From an uncultured bacterium (GTDB lineage: Bacteria; RBG-13-66-14; B26-G2; WVWN01), in assembly GCA_964631855.1 (NCBI GenBank), contig CAZWAM010000004.1, positions 3,508 through 61,276 on the forward strand: a DNA stretch of 57,769 nt. The letters run 5' to 3'. The first letter of the stretch is position 1. Each line of letters begins with the position of its first letter. A model generated the notes under the pieces. It did no database searches and was not told the origin of the DNA. It saw only the letters and a program-made list of their open reading frames with translations. Of this stretch, positions 24,268 to 48,043 are shown piece after piece. Made by a program: the position numbers and the translations under genes.

Positions 24268-24271
24268 CGCA

Positions 24272-25132
24272 TCACGAAAGGGTTTCCCAGTATACGCCGG
24301 CGAAGAATACGAAAATCAGGAACTTCATCAAACGCGCGGTCGAGCCGGCCAACAACGGATCGGGCTCACGGCGCCGCAGGTTTAATATCGTGTAAATTAA
24401 CACAAGGCCCCCCACGGCCGCCACGAACGCAAGGTTACGCCGGGAATACTCCTCGAGACGGTAAGAAATTACGGACACGGCCACCGCGGCCAGAGCGAAA
24501 GCCCCGGCCACCACTACCGGGAATCGTCCCCCGCCTGCGGCTACGGTCCTTCTCCCCACGAGCTCGTCCGCGCGCCGGTTCTCGACGTCCCGAAAAACAC
24601 TCGCGGCCAAGGCTATCAAACCGCCGACCACGGCGGCGATTATCGCCCGCCCCCCGGCGCCGCCGAACCATAACCACCCGTAACAAACGGGGAAAGCCAC
24701 CACCCCCGCGGCGAGAACGTTTCGAGCGAAATACGATTTGTCGAAAAAATAGTTGATCAACAAAACGAACGCCGCCGTAAAAAGCGCGGCGGCGAAAGGG
24801 CGGAAACCTAAAAAAGCCGCGGCCGTTAACCCAGCCGCGAGCAAGATAAAGCCCAACCACTTCGCTTCGCCGGGGCGAACTAAGCCCCGCGCGATCGGAT
24901 TGCTCGGGTTCGCCAAAACGCGGCTGCGACGGTGGAACCAATCGCCGTTCACGAAAGTGCCCGCTATTACCGTCGCGACCGCGACGGCGCCGAACGTTAT
25001 CGTGCCGCGGGGGGGGCCGCCCGCAAGGCCCGCGCCCAGCAAGGCGCCCGCGAACGCCAAACCCCAATCCGCAGGTCGCATCAAACGCAAAAACGCCAAC
25101 GCCGCGGCGTTAAGGTCCCGTTTACGTGGCAT
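24272..25132 (-). CDS. UbiA-superfamily prenyltransferase-like membrane protein (divergent first Asp-rich motif)
   Basis: 286 aa, about 8 TM segments. The first motif region reads AGTFVNGDWFHRRSRVLANPSNPIARG; the second reads FRDVENRRADELVGRRTVA. Confidence 0.65.
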   Translation of the reverse strand: MPRKRDLNAAALAFLRLMRPADWGLAFAGALLGAGLAGGPPRGTITFGAVAVATVIAGTFVNGDWFHRRSRVLANPSNPIARGLVRPGEAKWLGFILLAAGLTAAAFLGFRPFAAALFTAAFVLLINYFFDKSYFARNVLAAGVVAFPVCYGWLWFGGAGGRAIIAAVVGGLIALAASVFRDVENRRADELVGRRTVAAGGGRFPVVVAGAFALAAVAVSVISYRLEEYSRRNLAFVAAVGGLVLIYTILNLRRREPDPLLAGSTARLMKFLIFVFFAGVYWETLS

Positions 25133-25173
25133 ACCCGCTGCGAACTACCTTAATAAAATCTCCACCTACGCCC

Positions 25174-25779
25174 TTAACGCTTACCCCGGGAGGCCGCAAT
25201 CTTGGCTCGCGTGTAGAATATCCTCTGCACCGCGGTAATATGAGAGAGCACTGCCAGGAGCAACAGCGCTACCAAAGCCCCGTATCCGCCCACCAGGTAG
25301 CCCAAAGCGAGGAGGACCACCCTCTCGGGCCGTTCCATTATACCTACCTTACAACCTTCGATCAAACTCTCGGCCCGGGCCTTGGTATAAGAAACGAACA
25401 CCGACCCGGTTAGAACCAAGACGGTCAGGACGGCCATTAGGCCGTCGCGGGCCGCAGCGTAAAAATAGACTAAACCGGTCAAGTAGGCGGCCTCGCTATA
25501 TCGATCAATAACGGAGTCCATAAACGCGCCGAAAGGACTACCGAGTTCGTTGGCGCGAGCCACGGCGCCGTCCACCATGTCCGCGAAGCCCGCGGCCAGC
25601 ACGAGCAGCGCGCCCACACGCAACCGCCCGAACGCGAATGCTATCCCCGCGGCCCCCGCCAAGGCCAAACCCAGCAACGTGAAAACGCTCGGGCCTATGC
25701 CGAGCCGGCCGATTAAACGGGCCGGCGGATAGAGTATCTTCTTGCTTAACCGCCGGCCTAAGTCGTGAAAAGCTTGCAA
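25174..25779 (-). CDS. CDP-alcohol phosphatidyltransferase family protein
   Basis: 201 aa. Exact signature D-MV-DG-AV-AR-ANELGSPF-G-AFM-D-SVI-D (DxxDGxxAR-x8-GxxxDxxxD). Confidence 0.85.
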   Translation of the reverse strand: MQAFHDLGRRLSKKILYPPARLIGRLGIGPSVFTLLGLALAGAAGIAFAFGRLRVGALLVLAAGFADMVDGAVARANELGSPFGAFMDSVIDRYSEAAYLTGLVYFYAAARDGLMAVLTVLVLTGSVFVSYTKARAESLIEGCKVGIMERPERVVLLALGYLVGGYGALVALLLLAVLSHITAVQRIFYTRAKIAASRGKR

Positions 25780-32191: not shown

Positions 32192-32197
32192 AATACG

Positions 32198-32225
32198 ATT
32201 ATACCAAACTTACCACAAATAGCAA
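32198..32225 (-). promoter_or_regulatory. Promoter-like element abutting the paralog-1 start codon
   Basis: Minus strand: TTGCTA (32225-32220), 16-nt spacer, TATAAT (32203-32198). ATG 32191 lies only 6 nt past the -10 box. Confidence 0.4.
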
Positions 32226-32399
32226 ATCGCACCCCGAGAAACGCGCTCGCGCCGGACGAAAATAAATTATGAAGAAGCGACGACGCGTCAAAGGTCGTCC
32301 TTCTTCCGACGCGTAATTCTATATTAATTTTAATAAAAATGCGGCCGCCCGCCCGCGTAAGGCAGGCGACCTGGCCGGACGTCACGCGAGGCGCTGCCC

Positions 32400-34901: not shown

Positions 34902-34924
34902 TCCCGCCGCCTCCTTCAACGTAT

Positions 34925-34953
34925 ATTTAATGACATCCCGCCCGGCTAGTCAA
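34925..34953 (-). promoter_or_regulatory. Possible promoter for paralog 2
   Basis: Minus strand: TTGACT (34953-34948), 17-nt spacer, TTAAAT (34930-34925). Confidence 0.4.
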
Positions 34954-34958
34954 GTTAT

Positions 34959-34996
34959 AAAAAAATGCCCGCCCGCGCAACCCGGGCTTTTTTTTT
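34959..34996 (-). terminator. Bidirectional-looking terminator between paralogs 3 and 2
   Basis: An A7 run, a GC hairpin (gcccg...cgggc within tgcccgcccgcgcaacccgggc), then a T9 run. On the minus strand the hairpin is followed by ATTTTTTT. Confidence 0.45.
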
Positions 34997-35025
34997 GCCA
35001 GTACTACGTACGAAAGCCTTTTTGC

Positions 35026-37569
35026 CTACTTCACGACGACGATTTTCCCGGCTTGCTTCTGCTCTCGCCCCTCGACGCCGTAGAGGTAGACGCCCGGCGC
35101 GAGCGCGCCGCCGTCGTCCCCGGCAGGCCGCCACACGCACTCGTCGCGACCCACGGCCACCTCCTCGCGGCCTACGCGCCGCCCCGCAAGGTCGTATATC
35201 TCCACCGTCGCGGGTGACTTAAGGCCGACGAAGTTCACGCCTCCCGCGGATGTCGCGTAGCAATACGGATTCGGATAAACGGCGAAGGTCCGGGCGTAGG
35301 GAACGGCCTCGCCCCCGGGCGGCGGCGGCTCGGTAAAGGTCCCGGCCACGCCCGCCAGGTGGGCCAGCGTCGCGGCGAGGTCCCGGGCGCAGCGCGCGCC
35401 GAACGCCGGCTGGAGCTTGTCGAGCGTATCCTCGGGCGTGTGGTACCAGGGATATTCTATACCGCCGCCCTCGCCGACCTCGCCTTCGATGACGCCCAGC
35501 GCCGCGTAACCAACTTTAGTGAACGACCAGTCGTCGCTGACCCAATCGTCGTCCCAATCGTATATAAGCTCCTGGCCGTAGAGGCTACCTACGGCCTGTA
35601 AGTAACCCACCAACCAGGATGCCTCTTTAGGCGCGCCAACCGTCAGGTCGTCGCGGGAGCCGTTCTCTTCGTCGTAACTCACCATATCGGCGTTGAGGAC
35701 CGCCACGATCTTTTCGCCCTTTTCGGCGCACTCCCGGGCGTAGGCCTCGCTGCCGAGGAGGTACGCCTCCTCGTCGCCGAATCCCATAAACCGCACGGTC
35801 CGTTTGAAGCTGACGTTGCGGAAGGCGCGGGCGGCGCACATCGCGACCGCCGTCCCGGAGGCGTTGTCCTCCGCGCCGGGGCAGACCCAGGGCCGTTCGG
35901 TGGAAATGGAGTCGTGGTGGCCGCCCACGATAACGATCTCGTCCGGCCTCTCGGTCCCCTTACGCTCGGCGACGACGTTGTACTCCGGGGCGTTGAGACG
36001 GCCGGATATATCGGTCCAGCTCGAGCCGCCGTCGTCGGTCCGGTAGACGGCGTCGCCGTAGTAATCGCCGATGACGCCACGCGAGGCGTCGGCGAACGCC
36101 ATAACGACGCATTCGATCGCGGGCGCGGCCTTGACCCGCGCCCAGGTCCGGCCGCCGTCGTTCGTTTTAATCAGCGGGTCGCCGCCTATATAGCCCCGGG
36201 CCGTGGTCGGGAACTCCACCTGCCGGAAGTCGCCCCTGAAGCCGGTATCGACTTCTTTCCAGTTCACGCCGTCGGTGGTGTGGAGGACGCGGTTAAGGGT
36301 CGTTACGCCCCACGCATCCGCGGCCCCCACGGCCGCAACGTCGTATACGTATTCGCCGCGGCCTAACGGAACCGAACAGACCTGCCAATTATCACCGCCG
36401 TCTGCGGTGTAATAAAGCGGGGGGGCGTACACGGTATACACCACCGCCCATATATGACTCGAGGTATAACAAACCATACGGTTGAAGTAACGCATGGCAG
36501 GATGCATTAGCGGAATCCCGCGCCACGTTTGGCCGCCATTTTCCGTTTTTACCAGCCGGTCAGTTCCGATATAACCACCGCCCGCGGCCTTCCAATCCGC
36601 ATAGCTTATCCAGCCGACGCGCGGCGTCGCGAACGCTATGCCGTAGATGGAACGGAAAGCCACCGGCAGGGCCGGCGCGTATCGCACGTATTGACAGGAA
36701 TCGCCGCCGTCCTCGGTTATCGCGACGTAACCGTCGATGCCCGCGACGAAACCCGCGTCGCCGTCGAGCCACCAACACGACGGCGGGTTATAATAATTCC
36801 CGGCGGCCCCCTTGGCGGGGCGGAGGGTGTCCCAGCTCGCGCCGCGGTCCCGGGAGCGCCGGACCATGCAGTGGTAATCGTCTAGGTAGATATTGCCGCC
36901 CGCCTCCGGATAATGGGCGACCTCGTAGCGGCCGCACGCGAACGCGTGCCAATCAGCGTCCAGGTTTTGCCCGGCGAACCAGTTGCGGAGCCAGTTGCGC
37001 GCCCCCTCCATGTTCGGCGTAAAGGAATAGCGCGTCCCGTAACTCTGAAGCTTGCCGATGTACCCCGCGTATTCTTCCGCCGTGATGGTTTTGATGGCCG
37101 CGTCCACCGTGGCGTCTTTCTTGGTGGGCGGCGCCTCGGCCACCCCCTTCCAGGCCGCGCGCGTCGTAGGCCGCAGCTCGCGGACGCGCAGGCGCGGCTC
37201 CATAGCCAACAGGATGCCGATATCGCCGGGGGCCGCGACCGCAACCACGTAGTCGTCGCCGAGCCGTTGGACGTCGCCTACCGTCGCCATATCCGCCGCC
37301 GTCAGCGCCGTTCGCCTGGGCGGCGAGACGAGGAAGTAATGCTTGCCGCGGGCGCCCTCGTCCAACACCCGGTACGGCGCCACGCGCCCGAGCGCGGCGC
37401 TCGAGCCGTTATACAAATACCCCGCCGCGCACAAGCCCAAATAATAAAGCCCCGCGCCTTCGTCGGGCCGGACCTCTTTATCGGAAATCACGACGAGGTC
37501 GCCAGGCAACGCGTACGCCGCCGCGGCTGCGAGAGCGGCCCCGACGACTATAATATTTATTATCTTCAC
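35026..37569 (-). CDS. M28 peptidase, paralog 3: same architecture
   Basis: 847 aa, GTG start (VKIINIIVVGAALAAAAAYA). Blocks: GGHHDS, CPGAEDNASG, FGDEEAYLLGS, LNADMV, WYHTPEDT. Seven Asp-box-like repeats. CTD: VYPNPYCYATSAGGVNFVGLKSPATVEIYDLAGRRV. Confidence 0.85.
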   Translation of the reverse strand: MKIINIIVVGAALAAAAAYALPGDLVVISDKEVRPDEGAGLYYLGLCAAGYLYNGSSAALGRVAPYRVLDEGARGKHYFLVSPPRRTALTAADMATVGDVQRLGDDYVVAVAAPGDIGILLAMEPRLRVRELRPTTRAAWKGVAEAPPTKKDATVDAAIKTITAEEYAGYIGKLQSYGTRYSFTPNMEGARNWLRNWFAGQNLDADWHAFACGRYEVAHYPEAGGNIYLDDYHCMVRRSRDRGASWDTLRPAKGAAGNYYNPPSCWWLDGDAGFVAGIDGYVAITEDGGDSCQYVRYAPALPVAFRSIYGIAFATPRVGWISYADWKAAGGGYIGTDRLVKTENGGQTWRGIPLMHPAMRYFNRMVCYTSSHIWAVVYTVYAPPLYYTADGGDNWQVCSVPLGRGEYVYDVAAVGAADAWGVTTLNRVLHTTDGVNWKEVDTGFRGDFRQVEFPTTARGYIGGDPLIKTNDGGRTWARVKAAPAIECVVMAFADASRGVIGDYYGDAVYRTDDGGSSWTDISGRLNAPEYNVVAERKGTERPDEIVIVGGHHDSISTERPWVCPGAEDNASGTAVAMCAARAFRNVSFKRTVRFMGFGDEEAYLLGSEAYARECAEKGEKIVAVLNADMVSYDEENGSRDDLTVGAPKEASWLVGYLQAVGSLYGQELIYDWDDDWVSDDWSFTKVGYAALGVIEGEVGEGGGIEYPWYHTPEDTLDKLQPAFGARCARDLAATLAHLAGVAGTFTEPPPPGGEAVPYARTFAVYPNPYCYATSAGGVNFVGLKSPATVEIYDLAGRRVGREEVAVGRDECVWRPAGDDGGALAPGVYLYGVEGREQKQAGKIVVVK

Positions 37570-37670
37570 GTCTGCACTTCCCCTACTCGCCGGCGTTACC
37601 TGGCGATGACTATCTTGCCCGCCTTCTTCTGCTCCCGCCCGACGACGCGGTAGAGGTAGACGCCGGGGGC
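37510..37670. repeat. 161-bp perfect direct repeat, copy 1 (junction of paralogs 4 and 3)
   Basis: Base-for-base identical to 40071-40231 at an offset of 2561 bp; mismatches at 37509/40070 and 37671/40232 bound it. It covers the last ~25 codons of one gene, the 26-nt spacer with SD sequence, and the first ~20 codons (signal peptide) of the next gene. Confidence 0.9.
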
Positions 37671-40130
37671 AAGCGTTTCACCCTCCCGAGTAGCGGGCCG
37701 CCACACGCACTCGTCGCAGCCGTCGGCTACTTGCTCTCGAGCAACGCGCCGGCCTGCCAGATCGTATATCTCCACCATCGCTGGCGACTTCAGGCCGACG
37801 AAGTTGACGCCTCCCGCGGATGCCGAATAACAATACGGGTTCGGGTAAACGGCGAAGGGTCGGGAGAACGGGACCGCGGCGTACCCCGGCGGCGCAGGTT
37901 CGAAGAAGTACGGGCCCAAGCCGGCTAAGTGCGCCAACGTCGCCGCCAGGTCGCGGCAAAGGCGGACGCCCAGGGCCGGGTGGAGTTTATCCAACGTATC
38001 CTCGGCGGTATGATAGTACGGATAGTCGATAACGCGACCTTCGCCCTTACCTCCTTCGATGACGCCGAGCGCCGGATAACCGGCATCCCAGAACCGGGCG
38101 TGGTCGGCCCACCACTCCTCCGAATCGTAAATTAAGTCGTTACCGTACAGGCGGCCCACGCCCACTAAATAATCGTAAAGCCACTTGTACGTATCCTCTT
38201 TATGGGCCACGGCAAAATCGTCACGCGCGCCGCGGTCCTCGTCGTATGATACCATGTCGGCGTTTAATACCGCGACGACCTTCTCGCCGCGCCGCGCGCA
38301 TTCTTCCGCATAATATTTACTTCCGATACAACCGTATTCCTCGGCGCCGAAGGCAACGTAACGCACGGTCCTTTTAAAAGACATATTCCGAAACGCCCGC
38401 GCCGCGGCCATCGCGCAAGCCGTCCCGGAGGCGTTATCCTCGGCGCCGGGAGCCACCCACGGCCTTTCGTCCGAATAGGAGTCGTAGTGGCCGCCGACGA
38501 TGACGATCTCCTCAGGGACCTCACAACCTAAGCGCTCCCCTATCACGTTGTCCGCGGACAAGTTCAAGTCTTGTGATATATCCACGAACGTTTTGCAACC
38601 GTCGTCGGTCCGGTATTGATGTTGGCCTTTCTCATCTCCCACTACGCCATGCAAACGGTCCGCAAACGCGAGAAGGTCGCATTCCATCTCGGGCGCGCCC
38701 GCTACTTCGCGCCACGTCTTGCCGCCGTCGTCGGTGGCTATTAAGGTTGAACCCGCGGCGTATCCGTGCTCGGCGTCTGGGAATTCGACGTTGTAAAACC
38801 ATCCCGAGACGCCGGGGTTAACGTACTGCCAATTGAGGCCGTCGATGGTATGCAAGAGCATATTCGAACGGTCCGCGGCCCAAGCCTCGCGCTCGCCAAC
38901 CGCGGCGAGGTCGATGTAATATACCATCCCCCCTATAGGGTCGGCGCAAGGCCGCCACGTCGCACCGCCGTTGTCGGTGTAAATAAAACACGGTTTGAAA
39001 TTAGTATAGCAGTTCGCCGCCCAACCGCATTTCCCGTCAAAGAAGCTGATACTACCGGCCCGGAAGTGCTCGGGAAGATTTTGTTCCTTCCATGTCCGCC
39101 CGCCGTCCGTAGTTTTCAAAATATAAGCACCGTAGTAGAAACCCTGGGGCGTTACGTAAGGCGGGTACGCAACAACGCCGAGCCAGCCGACATATTCCGA
39201 CATGAAATGGCACGAATAAGGGTAATAGCTCCACGTGCGGCGTTCCTGGCCGAAGTCCACCGTATCCCACGTGTCGCCGCCGTCGCGCGTCTTCGCAAGC
39301 TTCTTGTTCGAGCCGGGGGCAAAGCCCGTAAGGCTGTCTAACCAGTAACCTTCCCCGTAGGCATTTACGCCACGGGGCCAGACCGCATCCCACGTACCAC
39401 CGCCGTCGCGCGAACGCCGTATTAGGCCGTGCCGGGTATCGAGGTATATATTGCCGCCGGCCTTAGGATAATGAGCGGCCGCGAATTCGGTGCACGGGAA
39501 CGGGAATAACGTCGTCTCGAGGTTTTGCGTCGCGAAGAAGTTCCGGAGGTAATCGCGCGCGCCTTCGCAACCGCGCGTCAACGTATATCGCGTCCAGTAA
39601 TCCTGCAATCGTTTTATATAACCGGCGTACTCTTCTTCGGTAATTGTGTTTATAGCCCCTTCTATAGCCGGATCCTTCTTCGTCGGCGGCGCCTCGCCGT
39701 CGTAGCGCCACTCCACCGGCGTCACGGGCTCGAGCTTTATCAGCTCAACTCTGTGGTCGACGGCCCGGAGCGCGCCCGGGCCCAGGCCCCGCTCGAGCCC
39801 TACCAGTATTTCATATTCCGAGAGCCGAACTGCCGTACCCAAATGCACAAAGTCCGCGGCCGTAACCTTCACCCATTCCGGCGCCCAGACGATATAGTAA
39901 TCTTTGGCCTCCGCGTCGCGGTCCAGGAGGCGGTACGGCGCCACGCGGCCTAACGCGGCACTCGAGCCATTGTACAAATACCCCGCCCCGCACGAGCCCA
40001 AATAATAAAGCGCCGCCGCCTCGTCGGGCCGGACTTCCTTAGCAGAAATCACGACGAGGTCGCCGGGTAGCGCGTACGCCGCCGCGGCTGCGAGAGCGGC
40101 CCCGACGACTATAATATTTATTATCTTCAC
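37596..40130 (-). CDS. M28 peptidase, paralog 4: same architecture
   Basis: The ORF track extends to 40262, but that extension reads through the CTD of paralog 5 in another frame. The GTG at 40130 gives the same VKIINIIVVGAALAAAAAYA signal peptide as paralog 3. Blocks: GGHYDS, APGAEDNASG, FGAEEYGCIGS. Confidence 0.85.
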   Translation of the reverse strand: MKIINIIVVGAALAAAAAYALPGDLVVISAKEVRPDEAAALYYLGSCGAGYLYNGSSAALGRVAPYRLLDRDAEAKDYYIVWAPEWVKVTAADFVHLGTAVRLSEYEILVGLERGLGPGALRAVDHRVELIKLEPVTPVEWRYDGEAPPTKKDPAIEGAINTITEEEYAGYIKRLQDYWTRYTLTRGCEGARDYLRNFFATQNLETTLFPFPCTEFAAAHYPKAGGNIYLDTRHGLIRRSRDGGGTWDAVWPRGVNAYGEGYWLDSLTGFAPGSNKKLAKTRDGGDTWDTVDFGQERRTWSYYPYSCHFMSEYVGWLGVVAYPPYVTPQGFYYGAYILKTTDGGRTWKEQNLPEHFRAGSISFFDGKCGWAANCYTNFKPCFIYTDNGGATWRPCADPIGGMVYYIDLAAVGEREAWAADRSNMLLHTIDGLNWQYVNPGVSGWFYNVEFPDAEHGYAAGSTLIATDDGGKTWREVAGAPEMECDLLAFADRLHGVVGDEKGQHQYRTDDGCKTFVDISQDLNLSADNVIGERLGCEVPEEIVIVGGHYDSYSDERPWVAPGAEDNASGTACAMAAARAFRNMSFKRTVRYVAFGAEEYGCIGSKYYAEECARRGEKVVAVLNADMVSYDEDRGARDDFAVAHKEDTYKWLYDYLVGVGRLYGNDLIYDSEEWWADHARFWDAGYPALGVIEGGKGEGRVIDYPYYHTAEDTLDKLHPALGVRLCRDLAATLAHLAGLGPYFFEPAPPGYAAVPFSRPFAVYPNPYCYSASAGGVNFVGLKSPAMVEIYDLAGRRVAREQVADGCDECVWRPATREGETLAPGVYLYRVVGREQKKAGKIVIAR

Positions 40131-40231
40131 GTCTGCACTTCCCCTACTCGCCGGCGTTACCTGGCGATGACTATCTTGCCCGCCTTCTTCTGCTCCCGCC
40201 CGACGACGCGGTAGAGGTAGACGCCGGGGGC
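40071..40231. repeat. 161-bp perfect direct repeat, copy 2 (junction of paralogs 5 and 4)
   Basis: Identical to 37510-37670. Confidence 0.9.
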
Positions 40232-42652
40232 CGCGGCCCGCGCTGCAGGCCGCCACACGCACTCGTCGCTGGGCGCGGGCACCTCCTCCCGCGCCACGCG
40301 CCGGCCGGCAAGGTCGTATATCTCCACCGTCGCCGGCGACTTGACGCCGACGAAGTTCACGCCGCCCGCGGATGTCGCGTAGCAGTACGGGTTGGGGTAG
40401 ACGGCGAAGGGGCGGGCGAAGGGCACCGCCGCCACGCCTGGGCGCGGGTCCTCGACGCCGGTGTCGTCGAACGCGGCGAGATGCGCGAACATGGCGGCGT
40501 AGTCGCGGGCGAAGCGTACGCCCAGGGCGGGGCGGAGCTTATCGAGGGTGTCCTCGGTCGTGTGGTAATATGGGTATACCATACACCCGCCGGGCCCGAC
40601 GTTACCTTCGATTACGGCCAGAGCGGCGTAATTGAAAAGCCGAAAAGCCTCCTCGTCGCTACCGACGACGCCGACCTCGTAAATAACATTATTACCGTAT
40701 AGGCCACCGACGGCCTTCAAATAATCGAATAACCACTTGTCACGGCCGTAATCCACCGCGTAATCGTCGCGGTTACCGCCATCCTCGTCGTAACAAACCA
40801 TGTCGGCGTTGAGGACCGCGACGATATCGTGGCCCCGGTCCGCGCAGTACCGGGCGTAAAATTTACTGCCGACCAATCCGTCCTCTTCGGCCGCGAACGC
40901 AACGTACCGGACCGTCCTCGGAAAATCATTTCCTTTCAAAGCCCGGGCCGCGGCCAGGACGCAGGCGGTTCCCGAAGCGTTATCTTCGGCCCCGGGAGCG
41001 AGGGACGGAAGCATATCCGAGAGCGAATCGTAATGGCCGCAAATAATTACTATTTTATCCGGTTGGGAGCTGCCCCGCCGCTCGCCGACGACATTCTCGC
41101 CCGATATATCCACGTTATCGACAATATTGGTGAATGAGATACCGCCGTCGTCGGTCAGACACAGGTATTCCCCTAAGTGATCGCCCACGACGCCGTGGTT
41201 CCTATCGGCGAACGATAGCGCGAAACAAGCGCCGGTGGGCAACCCCGTAATCTCGCGCCACGTAGCCCCGCCGTCGGAAGTCGCGAAGAATTCAATCCCG
41301 GCGGCGTAGCCGTATTGACTATCAGGGAATTCTAAACGATATATCGGCCGGAAGGCGCCGACGTCTACCCGCGACCACGTCAACCCGTCGGTCGTATGTA
41401 GAATATTATTTTTGCCGGAGGTCGCCCACGCTTCGCGAGGGCCGACAGCTTCGATATCATTGACCGCTCCTACGCCACCCGGTAGGTTCCCTTCCTGCCA
41501 CGATTCCCCGCCGTTGGCAGTATAGAAAATCCGGCCGTCCGAACCGAAGTCCCAGGCCCAACCGTGATTGACGTCGTAGAAACCCATGGCGCCAATACGG
41601 GCCCCCCCCGGTGCGGGCCGAGGAGTCCAGGTCCGGCCTCCGTCCGTCGTCTTCGCCAGGAAGCCCGTGGGGATTTCGCTGTTCCTTTGGTAATCGCCGC
41701 CGAGCCATCCGATTTCGGGCGTCGTAAAACAAATACTAAACGCCTTGTATTTGTGTTCGGGATACCCGGAAGCGAACGTGATCGTCTCCCAGGTATCGCC
41801 GCCGTCGGTGGTTCTTGCGATTCGGTTGTTTTTCGCGCCGATGAACCCCGTATCGCGGTCATACCAAAAAACCGAAAGTATCCCGTCCGTACCTTCCGCA
41901 TAAACCGTGTCCCAAGTTAGGCCGTTGTCCTTGGACCTTTTAATGGTACTACGGTTCGTCCTAAGGTATATCCTAGCCGAAGCGGCGTCGTAATACGCTC
42001 CCCGGAAGCCCACGCAATCGAATTCGAACAACGACGTATCCAGCCCTTGCGCGGAGAAGAAGTCCCGGATGTAATCGCGTGCGGCGTCGCACCCCTTCGT
42101 GTCGGTACGCCGGGTTTTAAAACCCTGTAGCGTTCTAATATAACCGGCGTATCCCGCTTCCGTAATCGTATTGACCGCGGCCTCGATTACGGGGTCCTTT
42201 TCCGTCGGCGGCGCCTCGCCGTCGAACCGCCAATCCACGGGCGTTACGGGCTCGAGCTTGCGTAGTTCTATGCGATGCTCTACGGCCCGGAGGTCGCCCG
42301 GGCCCAGGCCCCGCTCGAGGCCGACCAGTATCTCGTATTCCGAGAGCCGCACCGCGGCGCCCAAGTGTTCGAAATCCTCGGCCTTAACCTTCACCCATTC
42401 CGGCGCCCAGACGATGTAGTAATCCTTGAGCTGGGCGTCACGGTCAAGGAGGCGGTACGGCGCCACGCGGCCTAACGCCGCACTCGAGCCGTTATATAAA
42501 TAACCGTCCCCCGCTTGCCCCAAATAGTACAACCCGGCCGCCTCGTCGGGCCGAACTTCTTTATCGGAAATTACGACGAGGTCGCCGGGTAACGCGTACG
42601 CCGCCGCGACAAAAGTTACGCTCGCGACGGCGGCATATAGTAACCTCTTCAC
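40157..42652 (-). CDS. M28 peptidase, paralog 5: same architecture
   Basis: Start preferred at GTG 42652 (VKRLLYAAVASVTFVAAAYA; GGGAG 7 nt upstream). The track start at 42673 lies 1 nt from the -10 box. Blocks: CGHYDS, APGAEDNASG, FAAEEDGLVGS, LNADMV, YYHTTEDT. Confidence 0.85.
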   Translation of the reverse strand: MKRLLYAAVASVTFVAAAYALPGDLVVISDKEVRPDEAAGLYYLGQAGDGYLYNGSSAALGRVAPYRLLDRDAQLKDYYIVWAPEWVKVKAEDFEHLGAAVRLSEYEILVGLERGLGPGDLRAVEHRIELRKLEPVTPVDWRFDGEAPPTEKDPVIEAAVNTITEAGYAGYIRTLQGFKTRRTDTKGCDAARDYIRDFFSAQGLDTSLFEFDCVGFRGAYYDAASARIYLRTNRSTIKRSKDNGLTWDTVYAEGTDGILSVFWYDRDTGFIGAKNNRIARTTDGGDTWETITFASGYPEHKYKAFSICFTTPEIGWLGGDYQRNSEIPTGFLAKTTDGGRTWTPRPAPGGARIGAMGFYDVNHGWAWDFGSDGRIFYTANGGESWQEGNLPGGVGAVNDIEAVGPREAWATSGKNNILHTTDGLTWSRVDVGAFRPIYRLEFPDSQYGYAAGIEFFATSDGGATWREITGLPTGACFALSFADRNHGVVGDHLGEYLCLTDDGGISFTNIVDNVDISGENVVGERRGSSQPDKIVIICGHYDSLSDMLPSLAPGAEDNASGTACVLAAARALKGNDFPRTVRYVAFAAEEDGLVGSKFYARYCADRGHDIVAVLNADMVCYDEDGGNRDDYAVDYGRDKWLFDYLKAVGGLYGNNVIYEVGVVGSDEEAFRLFNYAALAVIEGNVGPGGCMVYPYYHTTEDTLDKLRPALGVRFARDYAAMFAHLAAFDDTGVEDPRPGVAAVPFARPFAVYPNPYCYATSAGGVNFVGVKSPATVEIYDLAGRRVAREEVPAPSDECVWRPAARAAAPGVYLYRVVGREQKKAGKIVIAR

Positions 42653-42674
42653 GACATCACTCCCTTCTCGCACA

Positions 42675-42795: not shown

Positions 42796-44727
42796 TTATT
42801 TTTGGCTTTCCCCCTCGTCCTCAACGATTTCGTAGTCGGCGTCCACGACGTCGCCCTTGGGGCCGTCGCCGCCCGGGGGCGGCGGCTGCGCGCCCGTTCC
42901 GCCGGGAGGCGGCTGCGCCCCCGCGCCGGCCTGCTGGTAGAGCCGCGTGGACATCTCGTTCAGCGCGACCTCCAGGCCCTCGGTGGCCGAACGGATCTCG
43001 GCCGCGTCGCCCTTCTCGCGGGCGTCTTTGAGGCGCCGGATGGCCCCGTCTATCTTGTTCTTCTCTTCAGCGGTGACCTTGTCGCCAAGCTCCTTCAAAA
43101 GCTTCTCGGACTGGTAGACGGCGGAGTCGGCGCGGTTCTTGATCTCGGCCTCCTCGCGCATCTTCTTGTCCTCCGCCTCGTGGTCCTTGGCCTCCCCAAC
43201 CATCCCGTCGATCTCGTCGTCGGTGAGGCCGCTGGAGGCCGTGATGGTGATGCGCTGCTCCTTGCTGGTGGCCATGTCCTTCGCCGAGACGTTCAGGATG
43301 CCGTTGGCGTCGATGTCGAAGGTCACTTCGATTTGCGGGACGCCGCGGGGCGCGGGCGGTATACCCTCCAGGTGGAAGCGGCCTATGGTCCGGTTGTACG
43401 CGGCCATCTCGCGCTCGCCCTGCAGGACGTGGATTTCGACCGTCGTCTGGTTGTCGTCCGCGGTGGTGAAGATCTGGCTCTTGCGGGTGGGGATGGTGGT
43501 GTTGCGCTCGATGAGGCGGGTCGTAACGCCGCCCAAGGTCTCGATTCCCAGCGAGAGCGGCGTGACGTCGAGGAGCAGGACGTCCTTGACGTCGCCGGCG
43601 AGAATGGCGCCCTGAATCGCGGCGCCCAGGGCCACGACCTCGTCCGGGTTGACGGACCTGTTGGGTTCCTTGCCGAACAGCTGCCTGACTTTGTTCTGGA
43701 CCGCGGGCATACGCGTCTGGCCGCCGACCAGGATGACCTCGTCGACTTCGGCCGGCGCAAGGCCCGCGTCCTTGAGGGCCTGTTGGCACGGCCCGACGGT
43801 CCTCTCGACGAGGTCGGCTACCAGCTCTTCGAGCTTGGCCCGCGTGACCTGCTTCTCGAGGTGCTTGGGCCCGGTGGCGTCCGCGGTGACGTACATCAGG
43901 TTAATAGCGGTCTCTGTTAGGGTAGAGAGCTCGCATTTGGCTTTCTCCGCGGCCTCCTTGAGCCGCTGGAGCGCCATCTTGTCCTCGCGCAGGTCGATGC
44001 CCGTATCGTTCTTGAACTCGTCGGCGAGCCAGTTGATGACGCGTTCGTCGAAATCGTCGCCGCCCAGGTGCGTATCGCCGTTGGTCGCCAGCACCTGGAA
44101 GACGCCTTCCTCGCCGATCTCGAGGATCGAGATGTCGAAGGTCCCGCCGCCGAGGTCGAAGACCGCGACCTTCTCGTTGGCCTTCTTCTCGAGGCCGTAG
44201 GCAAGGGCCGCGGCGGTAGGTTCGTTGATGATGCGCTCGACCTCGAGGCCGGCGATCTTGCCCGCGTCCTTGGTGGCCTGGCGTTGGGAGTCGTTGAAAT
44301 AGGCCGGCACCGTCACCACGGCCTTATTGACGCGCTCGCCCAGGTAGTCTTCCGCGGTCTCGCGCATCTTCTGCAGGACCATGGCGCTTATCTCGGGCGG
44401 CGAATACTGTTTGTCGCCGATTTGGACGCGGCAATCGCCGTTGGCCGCCTCGACCACCTTGAAGGAAACCGTCTTGATCTCCGCGGGCACCTCCGCGTGC
44501 CGGCGCCCCATGAAGCGCTTTATAGAATAAACGGTATTCTCCGGGTTGGCTATCGCCTGCCGCTTGGCGACGGAACCGACGACCCTTTTGCCGTCTTTCA
44601 GGAATGCCACCACGGAAGGCGTCGTCCGCGACCCCTCGGCGTTGGGGATCACCACCGGCTCGCCACCCTCCATCACGGCCACGCACGAGTTGGTGGTCCC
44701 CAGGTCGATACCGATTATCTTAGGCAT
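42796..44727 (-). CDS. dnaK: Molecular chaperone DnaK (Hsp70)
   Basis: 643 aa. [22 protein letters not shown]..., DLGGGTFD, and a C-terminal acidic tail. Confidence 0.97.
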
Positions 44728-44789
44728 AGTTTCTCCTCAGCGCCTTACGGCACTTATAAAATTAATACCCCCGGGTACGACATCGCACG

Positions 44790-45992
44790 CTACTCGGGCA
44801 ACGGCGTGTCCTCGGCCTGGGCTTCGGTTGCAGTATTCTCTTTTACGGCCTCTTGGACGAGACCCTCGCTCGCCACCTTGTTGTCGATGAAGCGGGCCCA
44901 TTCCGGGAAGCGCTGGCTCAACATGTCGTAGTTCTCCAGGGCACGGGCGCGCAGACACATATCTCGCAGCTCGCCCGGGCGGTTCAGTTCAATTAAGGCC
45001 TTTATGGCCATTACGTAGGCCGAGAAGTCGCGGCCGTAAACGTCTAGGTATCTTCGGAAGCGGTCGGCGGCTTCTTCAAACCTCATCTTCTCGAACGCCT
45101 CTACGCCGGCAACGAAGTTCGCGTCGCTATGGTCTTCCGGGGGGGGAGAATCGAGGCGCGGCTCGACCATCGGGCGCGGCTCGGGGACGGCGTCCGGGTC
45201 GATGCCGCGCGCCAGGAGGCGGTTCCGGACGAGGGGGTGTTTGCGGTTGGGGATTATGACGAAGACCTCGCCCTTGATGGAAGCGGGGTCGGGGCGGCGC
45301 TCCGTCATAAAGACGCCGTCGGTGATTATGCGGTGCACGAGTTCGCGGAAATTCACTTGCGGGTTCTCGCGACTTAGGATGTCGATTAACAATTTATAAC
45401 CGACGTAATCAAGCCGCTGTTCCATATCCAAACCCAGGTCCACGATCCGTTCCGCGATCGCCGATTCGTTTGCGCGCGCGAGGTCGTCGAGCGAGACGAA
45501 CTGGTCGGCCTGCGTGCGGAGAAATTCGGACGTGTTGCGCTCGAAGCCCATCACGAAGACCCGTTTGCCGTTCTGCTGGGCGCGCTTCACGATCTCGACG
45601 AAATCGCCGTCGCCCGTGACGAGCGCGTATTTTTGGATATTTTGATTGGTGTAAATCAATTGCGCCACGTCCCAAGCGATGTAGATGTCGGCGTTGTTCT
45701 GGAGGACGGTGCAACGTTGGCCGGTATTGACGTCCGTTTTATCGACTTGTTTGGAGCTTATATTCACGGTTTCGACCCGCCACTTACTCAATTGGGCCAA
45801 ACCTTCTACAAAATTGCTCCAAGGCGCGTACGCTCTCTCCAAGATTATTTTCCCGAACGGCTTAGTTTTTCCGTGGATGCCTTCGATAACCACTTCCAAA
45901 TCCATCGGCACCCCGTACAATCTCTCGAGCGTAATGAACACGTACTCATAATCGATAAAAATCCCGATTCCTTCTTCATTGATCTCATTCAC
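44790..45992 (-). CDS. NYN-domain (LabA/DUF88-like) protein with a helical C-terminal region
   Basis: 400 aa, GTG start. IGIFIDYEYV...NADIYIAWD...ALVTGDGDFVEIVKRAQQNGKRVFVMG is typical of NYN/PIN-like nuclease folds. The C-terminal third is helical and TPR-like. Confidence 0.65.
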   Translation of the reverse strand: MNEINEEGIGIFIDYEYVFITLERLYGVPMDLEVVIEGIHGKTKPFGKIILERAYAPWSNFVEGLAQLSKWRVETVNISSKQVDKTDVNTGQRCTVLQNNADIYIAWDVAQLIYTNQNIQKYALVTGDGDFVEIVKRAQQNGKRVFVMGFERNTSEFLRTQADQFVSLDDLARANESAIAERIVDLGLDMEQRLDYVGYKLLIDILSRENPQVNFRELVHRIITDGVFMTERRPDPASIKGEVFVIIPNRKHPLVRNRLLARGIDPDAVPEPRPMVEPRLDSPPPEDHSDANFVAGVEAFEKMRFEEAADRFRRYLDVYGRDFSAYVMAIKALIELNRPGELRDMCLRARALENYDMLSQRFPEWARFIDNKVASEGLVQEAVKENTATEAQAEDTPLPE

Positions 45993-46144
45993 TATACTTC
46001 TCCTTCTTTCGTGGAAAGTTGAAAAATAATAATCCGATCAACACCTTAGTTCCCCAAAACCCAAAAGCTCACGACCGCATCTTTGACGAGCGCGCGGACG
46101 CCCGCCGATCCCCGCGCGCCCCGCCACGCGGCAAGGCGGTAAGC

Positions 46145-46588
46145 CTACTCGCCCTCGATGGCTATCTCTTTCGGCTTGACCTCCTCGCTCTTGGGCAGTA
46201 CGATGCTAAGGACGCCGTCCTTGTAATGGGCTTTGACCTTGTCCGCCTGGACCATCGTCGGAAGCTCGAGCGCGCGGTAAAAACTCCCGTACACGCGCTC
46301 TACGCGGTGATAGTTCTCCTCGGACGTCTCCTTCTCCATCTTCTTTTCGCCCCGGACCGTTAGGACGTTGTTGGTTACGGAAATCTTGAAGTCGTCCTTG
46401 CTTACCCCGGGCGCTTCGACCTTCACGTTAATGGCATCGTCGGTCTCGGAAACGTCTACCGCCGGAACCCACACCGCGCCTTCCGCGCCCCCTTCGGCAC
46501 GACGGCTCATCAAATCCTCGAACAGGCGGTTTACCTCTTGCTGAATCCCCAATAAATCTCTAAAAGGACTCCACCGCACCAACGCCAT
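46145..46588 (-). CDS. Possible stand-alone Hsp20 translated from an internal start within the fusion ORF
   Basis: ATG 46588-46586 is preceded by AAGGAGGT (46602-46595) at 6-nt spacing. The product would be 147 aa and begin MALVRWSPFRDL, a canonical sHSP N-terminus and length. Confidence 0.55.
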   Translation of the reverse strand: MALVRWSPFRDLLGIQQEVNRLFEDLMSRRAEGGAEGAVWVPAVDVSETDDAINVKVEAPGVSKDDFKISVTNNVLTVRGEKKMEKETSEENYHRVERVYGSFYRALELPTMVQADKVKAHYKDGVLSIVLPKSEEVKPKEIAIEGE

Positions 46589-47044
46589 ATTTTTACCTCC
46601 TTTGCCCCCGCGGCCCTCGCGCCGCCGTTCGTCGGCGGCGACCGTCGAGACCCTGAGGCCGCGGAATTTTTCCGGTAAATCCTTCGTTAATATGTCGTGT
46701 ACTATTTTCTCTAAAAGTTCCAAGTCCCACGGCTTCGTTACGAAAGCATATGCGCCGTGCTCCATAGCGGTCATAATATCCCCCGACGAGGGCAAGCCGC
46801 TCATCATAACCACGGCGAGCGAAGGCCTCAGTTCCTTGGCGATTTTGAGCAGGGACAGGCCGTCGAGGAGTGGCAGCTGCAGGTCCAAAAAAGCCAAATC
46901 GGGGTTCGCGGCCTTGACGAAGTCCAAACCCTCAACGCCGTCCGCGGCCTCCTCCGCGGCGACTTCGGCCCGCGCCAGAAACGCGCATAACGAACTCCTG
47001 ACCTCCGTGTCGTCGTCGGCTACTAATGCTAAGGGCTTCGGCAT
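46145..47044 (-). CDS. In-frame fusion of a response-regulator receiver domain and an Hsp20/alpha-crystallin small heat-shock protein
   Basis: One 299-aa ORF. Residues 1-125: LVADDD...DLAFLDLQLP...VMMSGL...FVTKPW, a complete set of REC signature residues. A low-complexity linker (RVSTVAADERRREGRGGKGGKN) follows. Then MALVRWSPFRDLLGIQQEVNRLFED...INVKVEAPGVSKDDFKISV...LTVRGEKK...YGSFYRALELP...DGVLSIVLPK, which is Hsp20. Confidence 0.85.
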   Translation of the reverse strand: MPKPLALVADDDTEVRSSLCAFLARAEVAAEEAADGVEGLDFVKAANPDLAFLDLQLPLLDGLSLLKIAKELRPSLAVVMMSGLPSSGDIMTAMEHGAYAFVTKPWDLELLEKIVHDILTKDLPEKFRGLRVSTVAADERRREGRGGKGGKNMALVRWSPFRDLLGIQQEVNRLFEDLMSRRAEGGAEGAVWVPAVDVSETDDAINVKVEAPGVSKDDFKISVTNNVLTVRGEKKMEKETSEENYHRVERVYGSFYRALELPTMVQADKVKAHYKDGVLSIVLPKSEEVKPKEIAIEGE

Positions 47045-47350
47045 AATTCTTTCTCGTCAAAGAATTTCTGTATCCGTTATATTTGAGCAAAATATATGCC
47101 ACCGCCCCGAGCCGTAAATTATAGCATTTCTTTCATAAAATATATAGTATATATTCACAGGTTAACGCTTCTGCGAGCAAAAGACGTATCGCCACGAATT
47201 TGAGCAACGGCCCTAATGCGCCACAATGGCGCGCCCGTTCGCCGGGGCCGTATTTTTGGCGTATAAAAGGTCGGCGCTACGTCGCCTTACCGCCGAATCC
47301 CACCCACCGTCTAAAACCTGAATACCCTATCCTGCCCCTAACCCAAGCCT

Positions 47351-48043
47351 TTACGGCCCGGGGCCTCCCTCGGTTTCCACGTCGTGGTGGTGCTTTATTA
47401 TCTTCGCCGTCATTAGGTAGACAACCATCTCGCCGATGTTCGTGGAGTGGTCCGCGATGCGCTCGAGCGCCCGGGCGACCGCCAGGAGGTGGACGCAAGC
47501 CGCGACCTCGCCGGGGTGCTTTTCGGCGTACGCGATAACGTCGCCGTGGATCTTGCGCTCGAGGTCGTCGGCCTCGTCGTCGCGCTCGCAGACCCGCCGG
47601 GCCCACGCCGGGTCTTTTTTAACGAAGGCGCGGACCGCGTCGTGGACCATGGCCCCCGAGACCCGCGCGAGCGAGGGGAGGTCGAATAGCGTGTCCGGTT
47701 TGTTTCTTAGCGCGTGGAGGCCCAACGCGTCCTGGCATATGTCTATCGAGATGTCGTCTATGCGCTCGAGGTCCCGGATGATGTTTATCGCCGTAATTAT
47801 CATGCGGAGGTCGACCGCCACCGGTTGGTGGAGCGCGATGAGTGCCAGGCACCGCTCCTCGATGGCCACCTCCAGGCTGTCCACGCGACCCCGCTCGTCG
47901 ATAACCTTTTGCGCCTGCGCCGGGTTATCCATCAAGACGCTCTCGACGGCGTCGTCGAATATCTCCAATACCAGGCTGCTCATGCCGAGGAGCATGTCGT
48001 TGACCTCGGCCAGCTCTTCGTGGAAATGCCTTTCCGGCGTCAT
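47351..48043 (-). CDS. phoU: Phosphate signalling complex protein PhoU
   Basis: 230 aa. Two PhoU repeats, with ...HQPVAVDLRMIITAINIIRDLERIDD... and ...LLAVARALERIADHSTNIGE... Confidence 0.9.
   Translation of the reverse strand: MTPERHFHEELAEVNDMLLGMSSLVLEIFDDAVESVLMDNPAQAQKVIDERGRVDSLEVAIEERCLALIALHQPVAVDLRMIITAINIIRDLERIDDISIDICQDALGLHALRNKPDTLFDLPSLARVSGAMVHDAVRAFVKKDPAWARRVCERDDEADDLERKIHGDVIAYAEKHPGEVAACVHLLAVARALERIADHSTNIGEMVVYLMTAKIIKHHHDVETEGGPGP

Follow-up and report, generated by a model that had tools for sequence, protein, structure and literature searches.

Small heat-shock proteins (sHSPs) form a cell's first defence against the aggregation of proteins, and in bacteria they are known to be controlled by temperature, by their own dynamics and at the level of transcription; we know of no bacterial sHSP that is switched by signalling phosphorylation. 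In HSPB1 (Hsp27) and alphaB-crystallin, MAPKAP kinases phosphorylate serines of the N-terminal region itself, which shifts large oligomers to small active species. E. coli has a two-sHSP system, IbpA/IbpB, in which ibpB has a sigma-54 promoter. Response regulators are catalogued by their output domain. No description of a receiver domain (REC) joined to an Hsp20 chaperone was found in the searchable literature, in agreement with the preliminary description of the locus studied here, whose author was aware of no characterised REC-sHSP fusion.

Within the 57.8-kb window (i.e., the whole stretch of DNA analysed), positions 46145-47044 of the minus strand form a single ATG-to-TAG frame of 299 codons in which an intact receiver is followed by a disordered linker and a complete Hsp20 (Table 1). 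Pfam profiles identified the domains at both ends, as the preliminary description had read them from the translation alone: Response_reg (PF00072) scored 75.7 bits against a cut-off of 30.2, and HSP20 (PF00011) 82.3 bits against 20.8. The receiver residues named earlier (D10-D11-D12, D54 in FLDLQLP, S82, and K104-P105 in TKPW) were all correct by counting, the D54 codon being gac at 46885-46883, and D10, D11, D54, S82, K104 and P105 are invariant in an alignment of 28 homologs. An AlphaFold model shows the (beta-alpha)5 order of a receiver with pLDDT 82-95 (E5-9, H13-25, E29-33, H36-45, E50-54, H62-72, E77-82, H87-95, E100-103, H108-120), and the domain thus looks phosphorylation-competent as judged from its residues and predicted fold. 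In the same model the beta strands of the Hsp20 part span residues 195 to 285 (pLDDT mostly 70-89). This part was described as complete, and it indeed comprises an N-terminal region (NTR) whose motif MA(I/L)VRWSPFR is invariant or nearly so in the alignment, an alpha-crystallin domain (ACD), and a C-terminal IXI motif (I294-A-I296, at 46157-46165, with I294 invariant).

Table 1. Features of the REC-Hsp20 locus and its surroundings, in window coordinates.
Feature	Position	Strand	Remarks
Distal enhancer-like box ACGCCAAAAATACGG	47248..47262	-	about -180 from predicted transcription start
Proximal enhancer-like palindrome GCGCCATTGTGGCGC	47218..47232	-	about -150; predicted, probable bEBP site
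Sigma-54 (-24/-12) promoter TGGCATATATTTTGC	47087..47101	-	TGGCAT-N5-TTGCT, GG-N10-GC spacing
Leader, predicted ~31-nt, A/T-rich	47045..47075	-	weak SD-like GAGAAAG only
Full REC::Hsp20 ORF	46145..47044	-	299 aa; 46 full-length homolog clusters
Receiver domain	46700..47026	-	residues 7-115; Pfam Response_reg E 3.9e-21
Linker	46589..46684	-	residues ~121-152; ends in SD-encoded Gly-Gly
Internal Shine-Dalgarno AAGGAGGT	46595..46602	-	duplex energy -12.1 kcal/mol
Internal ATG (Met153)	46586..46588	-	start of predicted 147-aa Hsp20
Alpha-crystallin domain	46157..46453	-	residues 198-296; Pfam HSP20 E 2.9e-23
Two G+C-rich hairpins	46089..46140	-	directly 3' of stop codon
NYN-domain gene	44790..45992	-	400 aa
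dnaK	42796..44727	-	Pfam HSP70 E 1e-264

The linker begins with a conserved stretch (ILTKDLP..R..RVS) and is hypervariable in both sequence and length in its middle, and pLDDT falls below 50 at residues 123-166. The suggestion that it is a translated former intergenic spacer is plausible for its last ~5 codons; in the nearest unfused relative (locus L171), the equivalent upstream Shine-Dalgarno (SD) sequence and spacer would read KKGGVF-M if translated. Receiver and chaperone make no contact in the AlphaFold model (pTM 0.47), which therefore offers no structural hint of gating.

The REC-Hsp20 fusion is real. It recurs in 46 protein clusters of ~300 aa that share 51-96% identity, come from many independent assemblies (NCBI, JGI, ENA and Logan, including one complete 2.6-Mb genome), and are labelled Zixibacteria, Coatesbacteria or unclassified; the DNA of the window itself shows 92% identity to that of a Zixibacteria-labelled MAG. 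Because all 46 clusters carry the whole Response_reg plus HSP20 arrangement, for which a database search had been proposed, the fusion is neither chance nor a sequencing error. The proposed check for split orthologs was also run, and it yielded none: where REC and Hsp20 lay in separate ORFs among the 160 related loci screened, they were non-orthologous neighbours only. One such locus (L004) has an Hsp20 followed by an OmpR-type regulator, and another (L108) a kinase, a REC-REC protein and then an Hsp20. An exhaustive search of 1.84 billion representatives returned just one fusion representative among the best 150 matches listed. Two multi-stretch matches considered as REC-Hsp20 fusions of other lineages proved to be triple-receiver proteins.

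A sigma-54 promoter appears, from its sequence and conservation, to drive the fusion gene. Tested with the consensus TGGCAC-N5-TTGCW at fixed spacing, the motif has a single match in the window (0.13 expected), and the strict pattern places it 25-58 nt 5' of the start of the fusion in 14 loci out of 15, with one mismatch in the remaining locus (L081). Farther upstream, about 110-160 nt from the promoter motif, two dyad-like boxes are conserved within DNA that cannot otherwise be aligned. The proximal palindrome is the only zero-mismatch match in the window, and 11 of 15 loci have CG(C/T)CAT-N3-TGGCG some 110-130 nt before the promoter motif; the distal box keeps the same relative position in most orthologous loci. 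The transcription start, and with it the leader, was predicted from promoter geometry. Pairing of the fusion's 5' start with the 16S tail is weak (-3.0 kcal/mol here; -0.9 to -6.5 kcal/mol in 14 of 15 loci). Sigma-54 motifs precede only 3 of 154 standalone Hsp20 loci, which rules them out as a general trait of related Hsp20 genes. The nearest unfused relative also has the motif and the upstream boxes, in the order sigma-54 motif, two tandem Hsp20 genes, dnaK and dnaJ, and a published survey predicts for Bacteroidota and Planctomycetota that chaperone genes are under sigma-54 control (PMC12316311).

Downstream, the gene order is fixed. The fusion had been described as lying directly upstream of a NYN-domain gene and dnaK; all three are on the same strand, and their order is invariant in every related locus long enough to show it, the NYN gene following the fusion in 11 of 11 distinct loci and dnaK following the NYN gene in 8 of 8. 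This invariance is new relative to the preliminary description, as are the sigma-54 promoter and its enhancer boxes. The C-terminal 230 aa of the NYN protein have no Pfam match. In every locus with DNA beyond the stop codon, a strong hairpin of differing sequence stands directly 3' of that codon, a clear U-tract follows it in none of these, and a simple terminator scan returned nothing at this place; the hairpins may act as a partial terminator or stabilise the mRNA. Neither the window nor the flanks of related loci contained a histidine kinase, a sigma-54 activator or rpoN, no ORF in the window carries a GAFTGA motif, and a search with the receiver alone gave a single weak OmpR-type match.

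The locus also has an internal ribosome-binding site (RBS). The strong SD that was said to lie 6 nt 5' of the ATG at 46588 is there, at 46602-46595, with AAAAAT between AAGGAGGT and the ATG, and the predicted free 147-aa product begins MALVRWSPFRDL. Among the roughly 40 gene starts of the window, this SD has the strongest duplex energy. All 15 loci with DNA have AAGGAGG followed at 6-9 nt by ATG, at -11.5 to -12.5 kcal/mol in every one, and the nearest unfused relative shows the same SD-ATG geometry; AGGAGG-N4-9-ATG occurs only three times on both strands of the window. Another of these three probably marks where the gene at 32400-34919 really starts. The first linker glycine codon is GGA in 14 of 14 sequences (L168, identical to L084 across the RBS region, was left out) as compared to 10 of 242 (4%) elsewhere in these genes, where synonymous sites vary freely. 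Third-position GC content is 0.32 in the five codons before the internal ATG, 0.59 in the seven after it and 0.79 in the gene body, and it dips likewise at the 5' start. On this comparative pattern, the internal RBS is under selection at the nucleotide level. Met153 is invariant in the alignment, and residue 1 of standalone Hsp20s aligns to it; however, because Met153 lies within a highly conserved N-terminal motif, its invariance alone is no proof that it is used as a start codon. The conserved SD-ATG pair, the fixed GGA, the GC dip and the standalone alignment together indicate that free Hsp20 is very probably made alongside the fusion, and the two-product idea of the preliminary description thus gains comparative backing.

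Other regulatory devices were sought in the same region. An RNA thermometer over the internal SD was rejected, as the probability that the SD is unpaired varied between 0.08 and 0.95 over 13 loci and these shared no pairing partner, and Rfam had no match in 44500-47500. Programmed frameshifting at GGAGGT-AAA-AAT was likewise set aside: the A-run is no proper in-frame slippery heptamer and is missing from most homologs, and stops in the other frames are inconsistently placed. A consensus scan of the minus strand found no internal sigma-70 promoter in the receiver-coding part.

We lean towards the view that this is a lineage-specific stress gene whose one mRNA yields two in-frame proteins that form receiver-controlled mixed oligomers. 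Transcription would proceed from the sigma-54 promoter once an unlinked AAA+ enhancer-binding activator had bound the two dyad boxes ~150-180 nt upstream and switched the gene on. Inefficient starts at the A/T-rich, SD-poor 5' ATG would yield the 299-aa receiver-Hsp20, and efficient starts at the internal AAGGAGG-N6-9-ATG the canonical 147-aa Hsp20. Because the N-terminal region, the alpha-crystallin domain and the IXI tail are common to both forms, they would be expected to co-assemble into mixed oligomers with the receiver on a minority of subunits. Since the receiver has all residues needed for phosphorylation of Asp54, an orphan histidine kinase probably acts on it. Phosphorylation may then alter self-association of the receiver and hence the oligomer-to-dimer equilibrium, and the shifted equilibrium might change holdase activity or the hand-over of clients to the co-located DnaK. 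The receiver could serve as a gate on chaperone assembly or as a stress-signalling module. Only tentatively do we propose a two-component-controlled chaperone in the full sense, in which receiver phosphorylation on a sub-stoichiometric long isoform would set the state and activity of the mixed oligomer or report client load to the sigma-54 activator circuit.

Several other readings were weighed against this one. Artificial joining of two separate genes by an assembly, frameshift or sequencing error has nothing in its favour beyond its prior plausibility for a single metagenomic contig; with the same continuous frame in clusters from NCBI, JGI, ENA and Logan assemblies and in a complete genome, and with no split ortholog among the 160 related loci, its chance is vanishingly small, and the concordance of 46 clusters and 15 loci rules it out. 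It is also conceivable that only the 299-aa fusion is made and that the internal SD-like sequence is a relic of the fusion event or a pause in elongation at the domain boundary. With an uninterrupted ORF, the long form must arise whenever the receiver is translated, and SD-like motifs do occur by chance elsewhere in the gene (e.g., the 9-mer GAGGAGGT in the SEEV codons). However, a relic should decay, whereas the GGA-GGN pair is fixed against a background of 4% while other synonymous sites vary; a pause, moreover, needs no ATG at 6-9 nt, no A/T-rich spacer and no downstream dip in GC, and SD-induced pausing is itself disputed. We thus consider synthesis of the fusion alone to be quite unlikely.

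The remaining alternatives concern what the receiver does. The fusion might be mainly a signalling device and only secondarily a chaperone, its Hsp20 half reporting the load of unfolded protein and its receiver serving as a phosphate sink or partner-binding module that feeds back on the kinase and activator pathway behind its own sigma-54 promoter, in parallel with the chaperone-titration circuits DnaK/sigma-32 and HspR/DnaK. An enhancer-dependent promoter requires an activator, and such activators often belong to the response regulators themselves; the best matches of the orphan receiver are NtrC/RssB-like, and a separate predicted free Hsp20 would be available for bulk chaperone work. Yet neither activator nor kinase was found in the window or the related-locus flanks, the database search shows no close receiver paralog, and the Hsp20 half is conserved as in bona fide chaperones, IXI motif included, so that we judge this view unlikely. 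Alternatively, the receiver might be a phosphorylation-independent appendage (a pseudo-receiver) that limits oligomer size or offers a docking surface. Orphan and atypical receivers exist, and no cognate kinase is encoded nearby; however, homologs of 51-96% identity all keep the five signature positions and the K-P pair unchanged, which is unexpected for pseudo-receivers and makes this explanation improbable. Regulation of mixed oligomers through a phosphorylatable receiver remains the interpretation that we prefer.

If the tentatively proposed two-component-controlled chaperone is real, the locus would connect His-Asp signalling directly to a holdase for the first time and give bacteria a counterpart of the phospho-regulated HSPB1 and alphaB-crystallin, built from one gene with two starts; a chaperone output would also add a new entry to the response-regulator catalogue. 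The locus is compact (0.9 kb), its conservation singles out the receiver active site, the internal RBS and the IXI motif, and it lends itself to direct tests in E. coli and in vitro. A clean natural case of selection keeping an internal start after gene fusion is offered as well, and an entry point to the study of sigma-54-dependent heat-shock control among uncultured FCB-related phyla.

Comparison with described systems brings out what is shared and what is new. Like response regulators with non-DNA-binding outputs, the fusion has an N-terminal (beta-alpha)5 receiver, a flexible linker and a C-terminal effector, and its best solved receiver match is the RssB-type regulator 3eq2, followed by the Spo0F and NtrC receivers. 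It differs from them in that the output is a small heat-shock chaperone, no kinase is adjacent, and the effector is predicted to be made alone from the same mRNA as well. The closest solved sHSPs are 5j7n, 6ewn, 3w1z and 1gme (E 2e-22), and the Hsp20 part is 41-57% identical to standalone Hsp20s; Xanthomonas HspA (5j7n), Thermosynechococcus HspA (6ewn) and wheat Hsp16.9 (1gme) share its W-x-P-F N-terminal region, ACD and IXI motif. Unlike ordinary sHSPs, one of its two predicted isoforms carries a 152-residue receiver and linker before the N-terminus. By analogy with HSPB1 and alphaB-crystallin, phosphorylation may act on oligomer state, but here on an aspartate of a separate, fused receiver. 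The E. coli IbpA/IbpB pair likewise has two cooperating sHSP species and enhancer-dependent transcription, and sigma-54 chaperone regulons are predicted in Bacteroidota (PMC12316311); here the second species would be replaced by a receiver-tagged isoform of the same gene, and a NYN gene stands between the sHSP gene and dnaK, unlike in such systems as the nearest unfused relative, where the Hsp20 genes are followed by dnaK. Genes with an internal start and two isoforms have been the subject of surveys (bioRxiv 10.1101/520783; PMC11005335). ClpB-95/ClpB-80, CheA-L/CheA-S and IF2 alpha/beta likewise have an internal SD and start codon inside a longer ORF, with a short form that lacks a regulatory domain at the N-terminus and can enter oligomers together with the long form. 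In contrast to these, the internal site here is much stronger than the 5' site, and the predicted short form is the ancestral complete protein, whereas the long form is the novelty.

A search of 5.8 billion proteins with the receiver (REC)::Hsp20 fusion recovered 46 clusters in which both domains, PF00072 and PF00011, occur together at 51–96% identity to it; 44 of them measure 298–313 aa and two are truncated. Next in the list came standalone Hsp20s, matching over the C-terminal half only and at no more than 57% identity. The clusters derive from NCBI, JGI, ENA, and Logan assemblies. The fusion protein of the window has itself already been deposited (cluster mate NIT35819.1, 'Hsp20 family protein [candidate division Zixibacteria bacterium]'), and the window shares 92% DNA identity across 9.6 kb with a Zixibacteria-labelled MAG. 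The most distant fusion group includes UCE27143.1, 'response regulator [Candidatus Coatesbacteria bacterium]', from a complete 2.6-Mb genome. A sequencing error at the join between the two parts, the possibility against which the preliminary description had cautioned, is thus excluded together with mis-assembly, as 46 concordant clusters come from independent assemblies, one of them on a complete genome. Split orthologs, with receiver and Hsp20 in separate ORFs, were not found among 160 related loci screened, and it is virtually certain that the fusion is real. In an exhaustive HMMER search of 1.84 billion 50%-identity representatives, the best 150 matches held just 1 fusion representative, and the two multi-stretch matches were triple-receiver proteins, which suggests an architecture invented once and restricted to a narrow lineage. 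All its carriers are uncultured bacteria, its only database labels are the two quoted, and, as had been supposed, no description of a receiver-sHSP fusion was found in the searchable literature. Among other chaperone loci, a 501-aa database protein (P0091) carries HSP70 and HSP20 Pfam domains together and represents either a further fusion of chaperones or two genes called as one. An unrelated metagenome contig (L108:70-1803) encodes, as separate adjoining genes, a histidine kinase C-terminus, a 246-aa REC plus REC-like protein, and an Hsp20 with 45% identity to the query, and is an unfused two-component/sHSP neighborhood.

Features of the fusion locus, in window coordinates
Feature	Position	Strand	Details
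REC::Hsp20 fusion ORF	46145..47044	minus	299 codons, ATG-to-TAG single frame
Internal Shine-Dalgarno (SD)	46602-46595	minus	AAGGAGGT
Internal ATG (Met153)	46588-46586	minus	opens predicted 147-aa product beginning MALVRWSPFRDL
Probable sigma-54 -24/-12 promoter	47087-47101	minus	TGGCAT-ATATT-TTGCT, canonical GG-N10-GC spacing
Putative enhancer box	47218-47232	minus	palindrome GCGCCATTGTGGCGC
Putative enhancer box	47248-47262	minus	ACGCCAAAAATACGG, dyad-like
NYN-domain gene	44790-45992	minus	400 aa, predicted RNase
dnaK	42796-44727	minus	
phoU-pst operon			upstream of fusion in window

Both halves of the single frame are matched by Pfam, Response_reg at residues 7–115 (E 3.9e-21) and HSP20 at residues 198–296 (E 2.9e-23); NCBIfam gave sub-threshold matches only, to sHSP and receiver families. 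The receiver residues previously described as intact (D10–D12, D54 in FLDLQLP, S82, and K104-P105) are all at their claimed positions, and D10, D11, D54, S82, K104, and P105 are invariant in all 28 fusions of the alignment; purifying selection on the receiver is evident. In the same alignment the Hsp20 half keeps an N-terminal MA(I/L)VRWSPFR motif, the alpha-crystallin core, and the C-terminal I-x-I, and residue 1 of dozens of standalone Hsp20s aligns to Met153, so that the one ORF does contain a complete Hsp20 with its own N-terminus, as had been claimed. The linker is conserved at its start, to about residue 135 (ILTKDLP..R..RVS), hypervariable in both length and sequence in its middle, and closed by an invariant Gly-Gly with the invariant Met153 two or three residues on. 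An AlphaFold2 model built from a 65-sequence alignment shows a confident (beta-alpha)5 receiver (pLDDT 82–95), disorder over residues 123–166, and a beta-sandwich of moderate confidence for the Hsp20 half, with no inter-domain packing of receiver and chaperone (pTM 0.47). By sequence, the closest solved structures are the RssB-type regulator 3eq2, Spo0F, and NtrC for the receiver and bacterial, plant, and yeast sHSPs (5j7n, 6ewn, 1gme, 3w1z) for the Hsp20 half; on every sequence feature tested, the protein is a member of both families.

The end of the linker also encodes a candidate start site, whose SD is followed by a spacer of six bases (AAAAAT), as first described. Across 15 fusion loci, window included, (A/G)GGAGG stands 6–9 nt ahead of the internal ATG in every case, with a duplex energy to the 16S tail of −11.5 to −12.5 kcal/mol; at the 5' start the energy is −0.9 to −6.5 kcal/mol in 14 of 15. 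Of about 40 gene starts in the window, none has a stronger SD than the internal one (dnaK, −8.6; NYN gene, −9.3), and AGGAGG-N4-9-ATG occurs only three times there. The first codon of the Gly-Gly is GGA in 14 of 14 sequences compared (L168 was dropped, being identical to L084 across this region); elsewhere in the fusion genes GGA makes up 10 of 242 Gly codons (4%) and GGC 66%. Because variation is free at the remaining four-fold sites of conserved residues (typically 1–1.8 bits), the fixed GGA cannot be put down to shared ancestry. Third-codon-position GC (GC3), 0.78–0.79 in the gene body, is 0.45 in codons 2–8 after the 5' start, 0.32 in the five codons ahead of the internal ATG, and 0.59 in the seven past it; a dip of this kind is the usual signature of a translation start. 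We conclude from these comparisons that the internal ribosome-binding site is under selection. Internal initiation is likely to be physiological, with free Hsp20 very probably made besides the fusion and probably outnumbering it. With no stop codon between the parts, any translation of the receiver must run on into the long form; the two products originally proposed are to this extent supported at the level of sequence. L171, the nearest unfused relative, has AAAGGAGGA 7 nt ahead of an ATG at the homologous point, and its over-extended gene call reads ...KKGGVF-M... ahead of the Hsp20 start; for the last few codons of the linker, this fits the idea of a translated former spacer.

No conserved structure was found over the internal SD (unpaired probability 0.08 to 0.95 among loci), nor any minus-strand sigma-70-like promoter within the receiver-coding stretch, conserved frameshift slippery site in fusion loci, or Rfam family in window 44500-47500. 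A second patch of A/T-ending synonymous codons lies at the end of receiver helix 5 (46670-46715, minus, residues ∼111–125), about 90–125 nt upstream of the internal ATG, with seven-codon GC3 of 0.46–0.56 vs. a 5th percentile of 0.65 and Leu encoded by TTA in 6–8 of 12 sequences; it could be an internal promoter, ribosome standby site, or RNase site. In codons 2–8 (47026-47044, minus), Val8 is GTA in 12 of 13 homologs, which together with the GC3 there suggests selection for an unstructured A/T-rich start offsetting the weak 5' SD. Just past the fusion stop codon every locus has a strong G+C-rich hairpin, differing in sequence between loci and without a clear U-tract, that could act as a partial terminator or stabilizer.

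Between distant loci, only three islands can be aligned in the 300 nt upstream of the fusion. The sigma-54 motif stands 25–58 nt ahead of the start codon across loci, is the only match in the window (0.13 expected), and satisfies a strict pattern in 14 of 15 fusion loci, the fifteenth having one mismatch. Two dyad-like boxes lie about 110–160 nt further upstream, the usual layout of activator sites, and on these motifs the promoter is highly likely to drive the fusion. Among related standalone Hsp20 genes other than L171, only 3 of 154 have the motif. L171 (4507-7639) itself carries a sigma-54 motif, TGGCATAGGTTTTGCG, with TGTCATTATGAC-like boxes, ahead of two tandem Hsp20 genes that are followed by dnaK and then dnaJ; the second Hsp20 is called 31 codons too long, since the frame chances to stay open through the SD and spacer in front of it. 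In the related locus L083, a further sigma-54-like motif, TGGCATGGCTTTTGCG, occurs at position 10321, past dnaK and some 5.3 kb downstream from where the fusion starts; it has no counterpart in the window. The 57.8-kb window and the flanks of related loci encode no histidine kinase, no further receiver, and no activator of the GAFTGA type. According to a published PSSM survey (PMC12316311), Bacteroidota and Planctomycetota are predicted to place their IbpA, DnaK, and GroEL genes under sigma-54, which fits an FCB-related lineage for the window.

The NYN gene and dnaK follow the fusion on the same strand, as previously noted, and this order is fixed: the NYN gene comes next in 11 of 11 distinct related loci whose downstream sequence is long enough, and dnaK after it in 8 of 8 reaching that far. 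Upstream neighbors vary (phoU/pst, radA, or hypothetical genes). The NYN protein is as conserved as its neighbors (E 1e-136 to 1e-259; equivalents in L001, L003, L083, L161, L163, L165, and L167-L169), and Pfam matches nothing in its C-terminal 230 aa. Directly downstream of dnaK are five tandem paralogous genes of 721–888 aa (30026-42673, minus), each with BNR/sortilin-type beta-propeller repeats and an M28 peptidase domain; M28 genes occur downstream of dnaK in related loci too. Further along, adjoining geranylgeranyl-reductase-like, UbiA prenyltransferase, and CDP-alcohol phosphatidyltransferase genes (23062-25779, minus) form a trio that we take to resemble the archaeal-type ether-lipid gene sets that FCB-group bacteria are reported to carry.

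Starting from the architecture and its conservation, selection on the internal ribosome-binding site, the promoter and enhancer motifs, and the gene order documented here, we propose that under stress an unlinked activator would switch on sigma-54 transcription of the fusion, and that the mRNA would yield much free Hsp20 and less receiver-tagged Hsp20. The two forms would co-assemble via their shared alpha-crystallin domain and IXI motif; since a cage of long subunits only would need room for 150 additional residues at each N-terminus, mixing would be the natural solution. An orphan kinase might then phosphorylate D54 and alter receiver self-association, shifting the oligomer equilibrium or client hand-over to DnaK. 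Phospho-gating of chaperone activity specifically is a possibility that we advance with some doubt, and its main rival is that the long form serves a signaling or feedback role. The interpretation in the preliminary description is supported by the sequence evidence, to which the conserved internal ribosome-binding site, the sigma-54 promoter with its enhancer, and the invariant NYN-dnaK linkage are added, and the locus is compact and readily testable. With phospho-gating, the fusion would work like phospho-regulated eukaryotic sHSPs, although the chemistry differs; the locus would likewise resemble two-sHSP systems such as IbpA/IbpB, and the gene would behave as do dual-isoform genes such as clpB and cheA.
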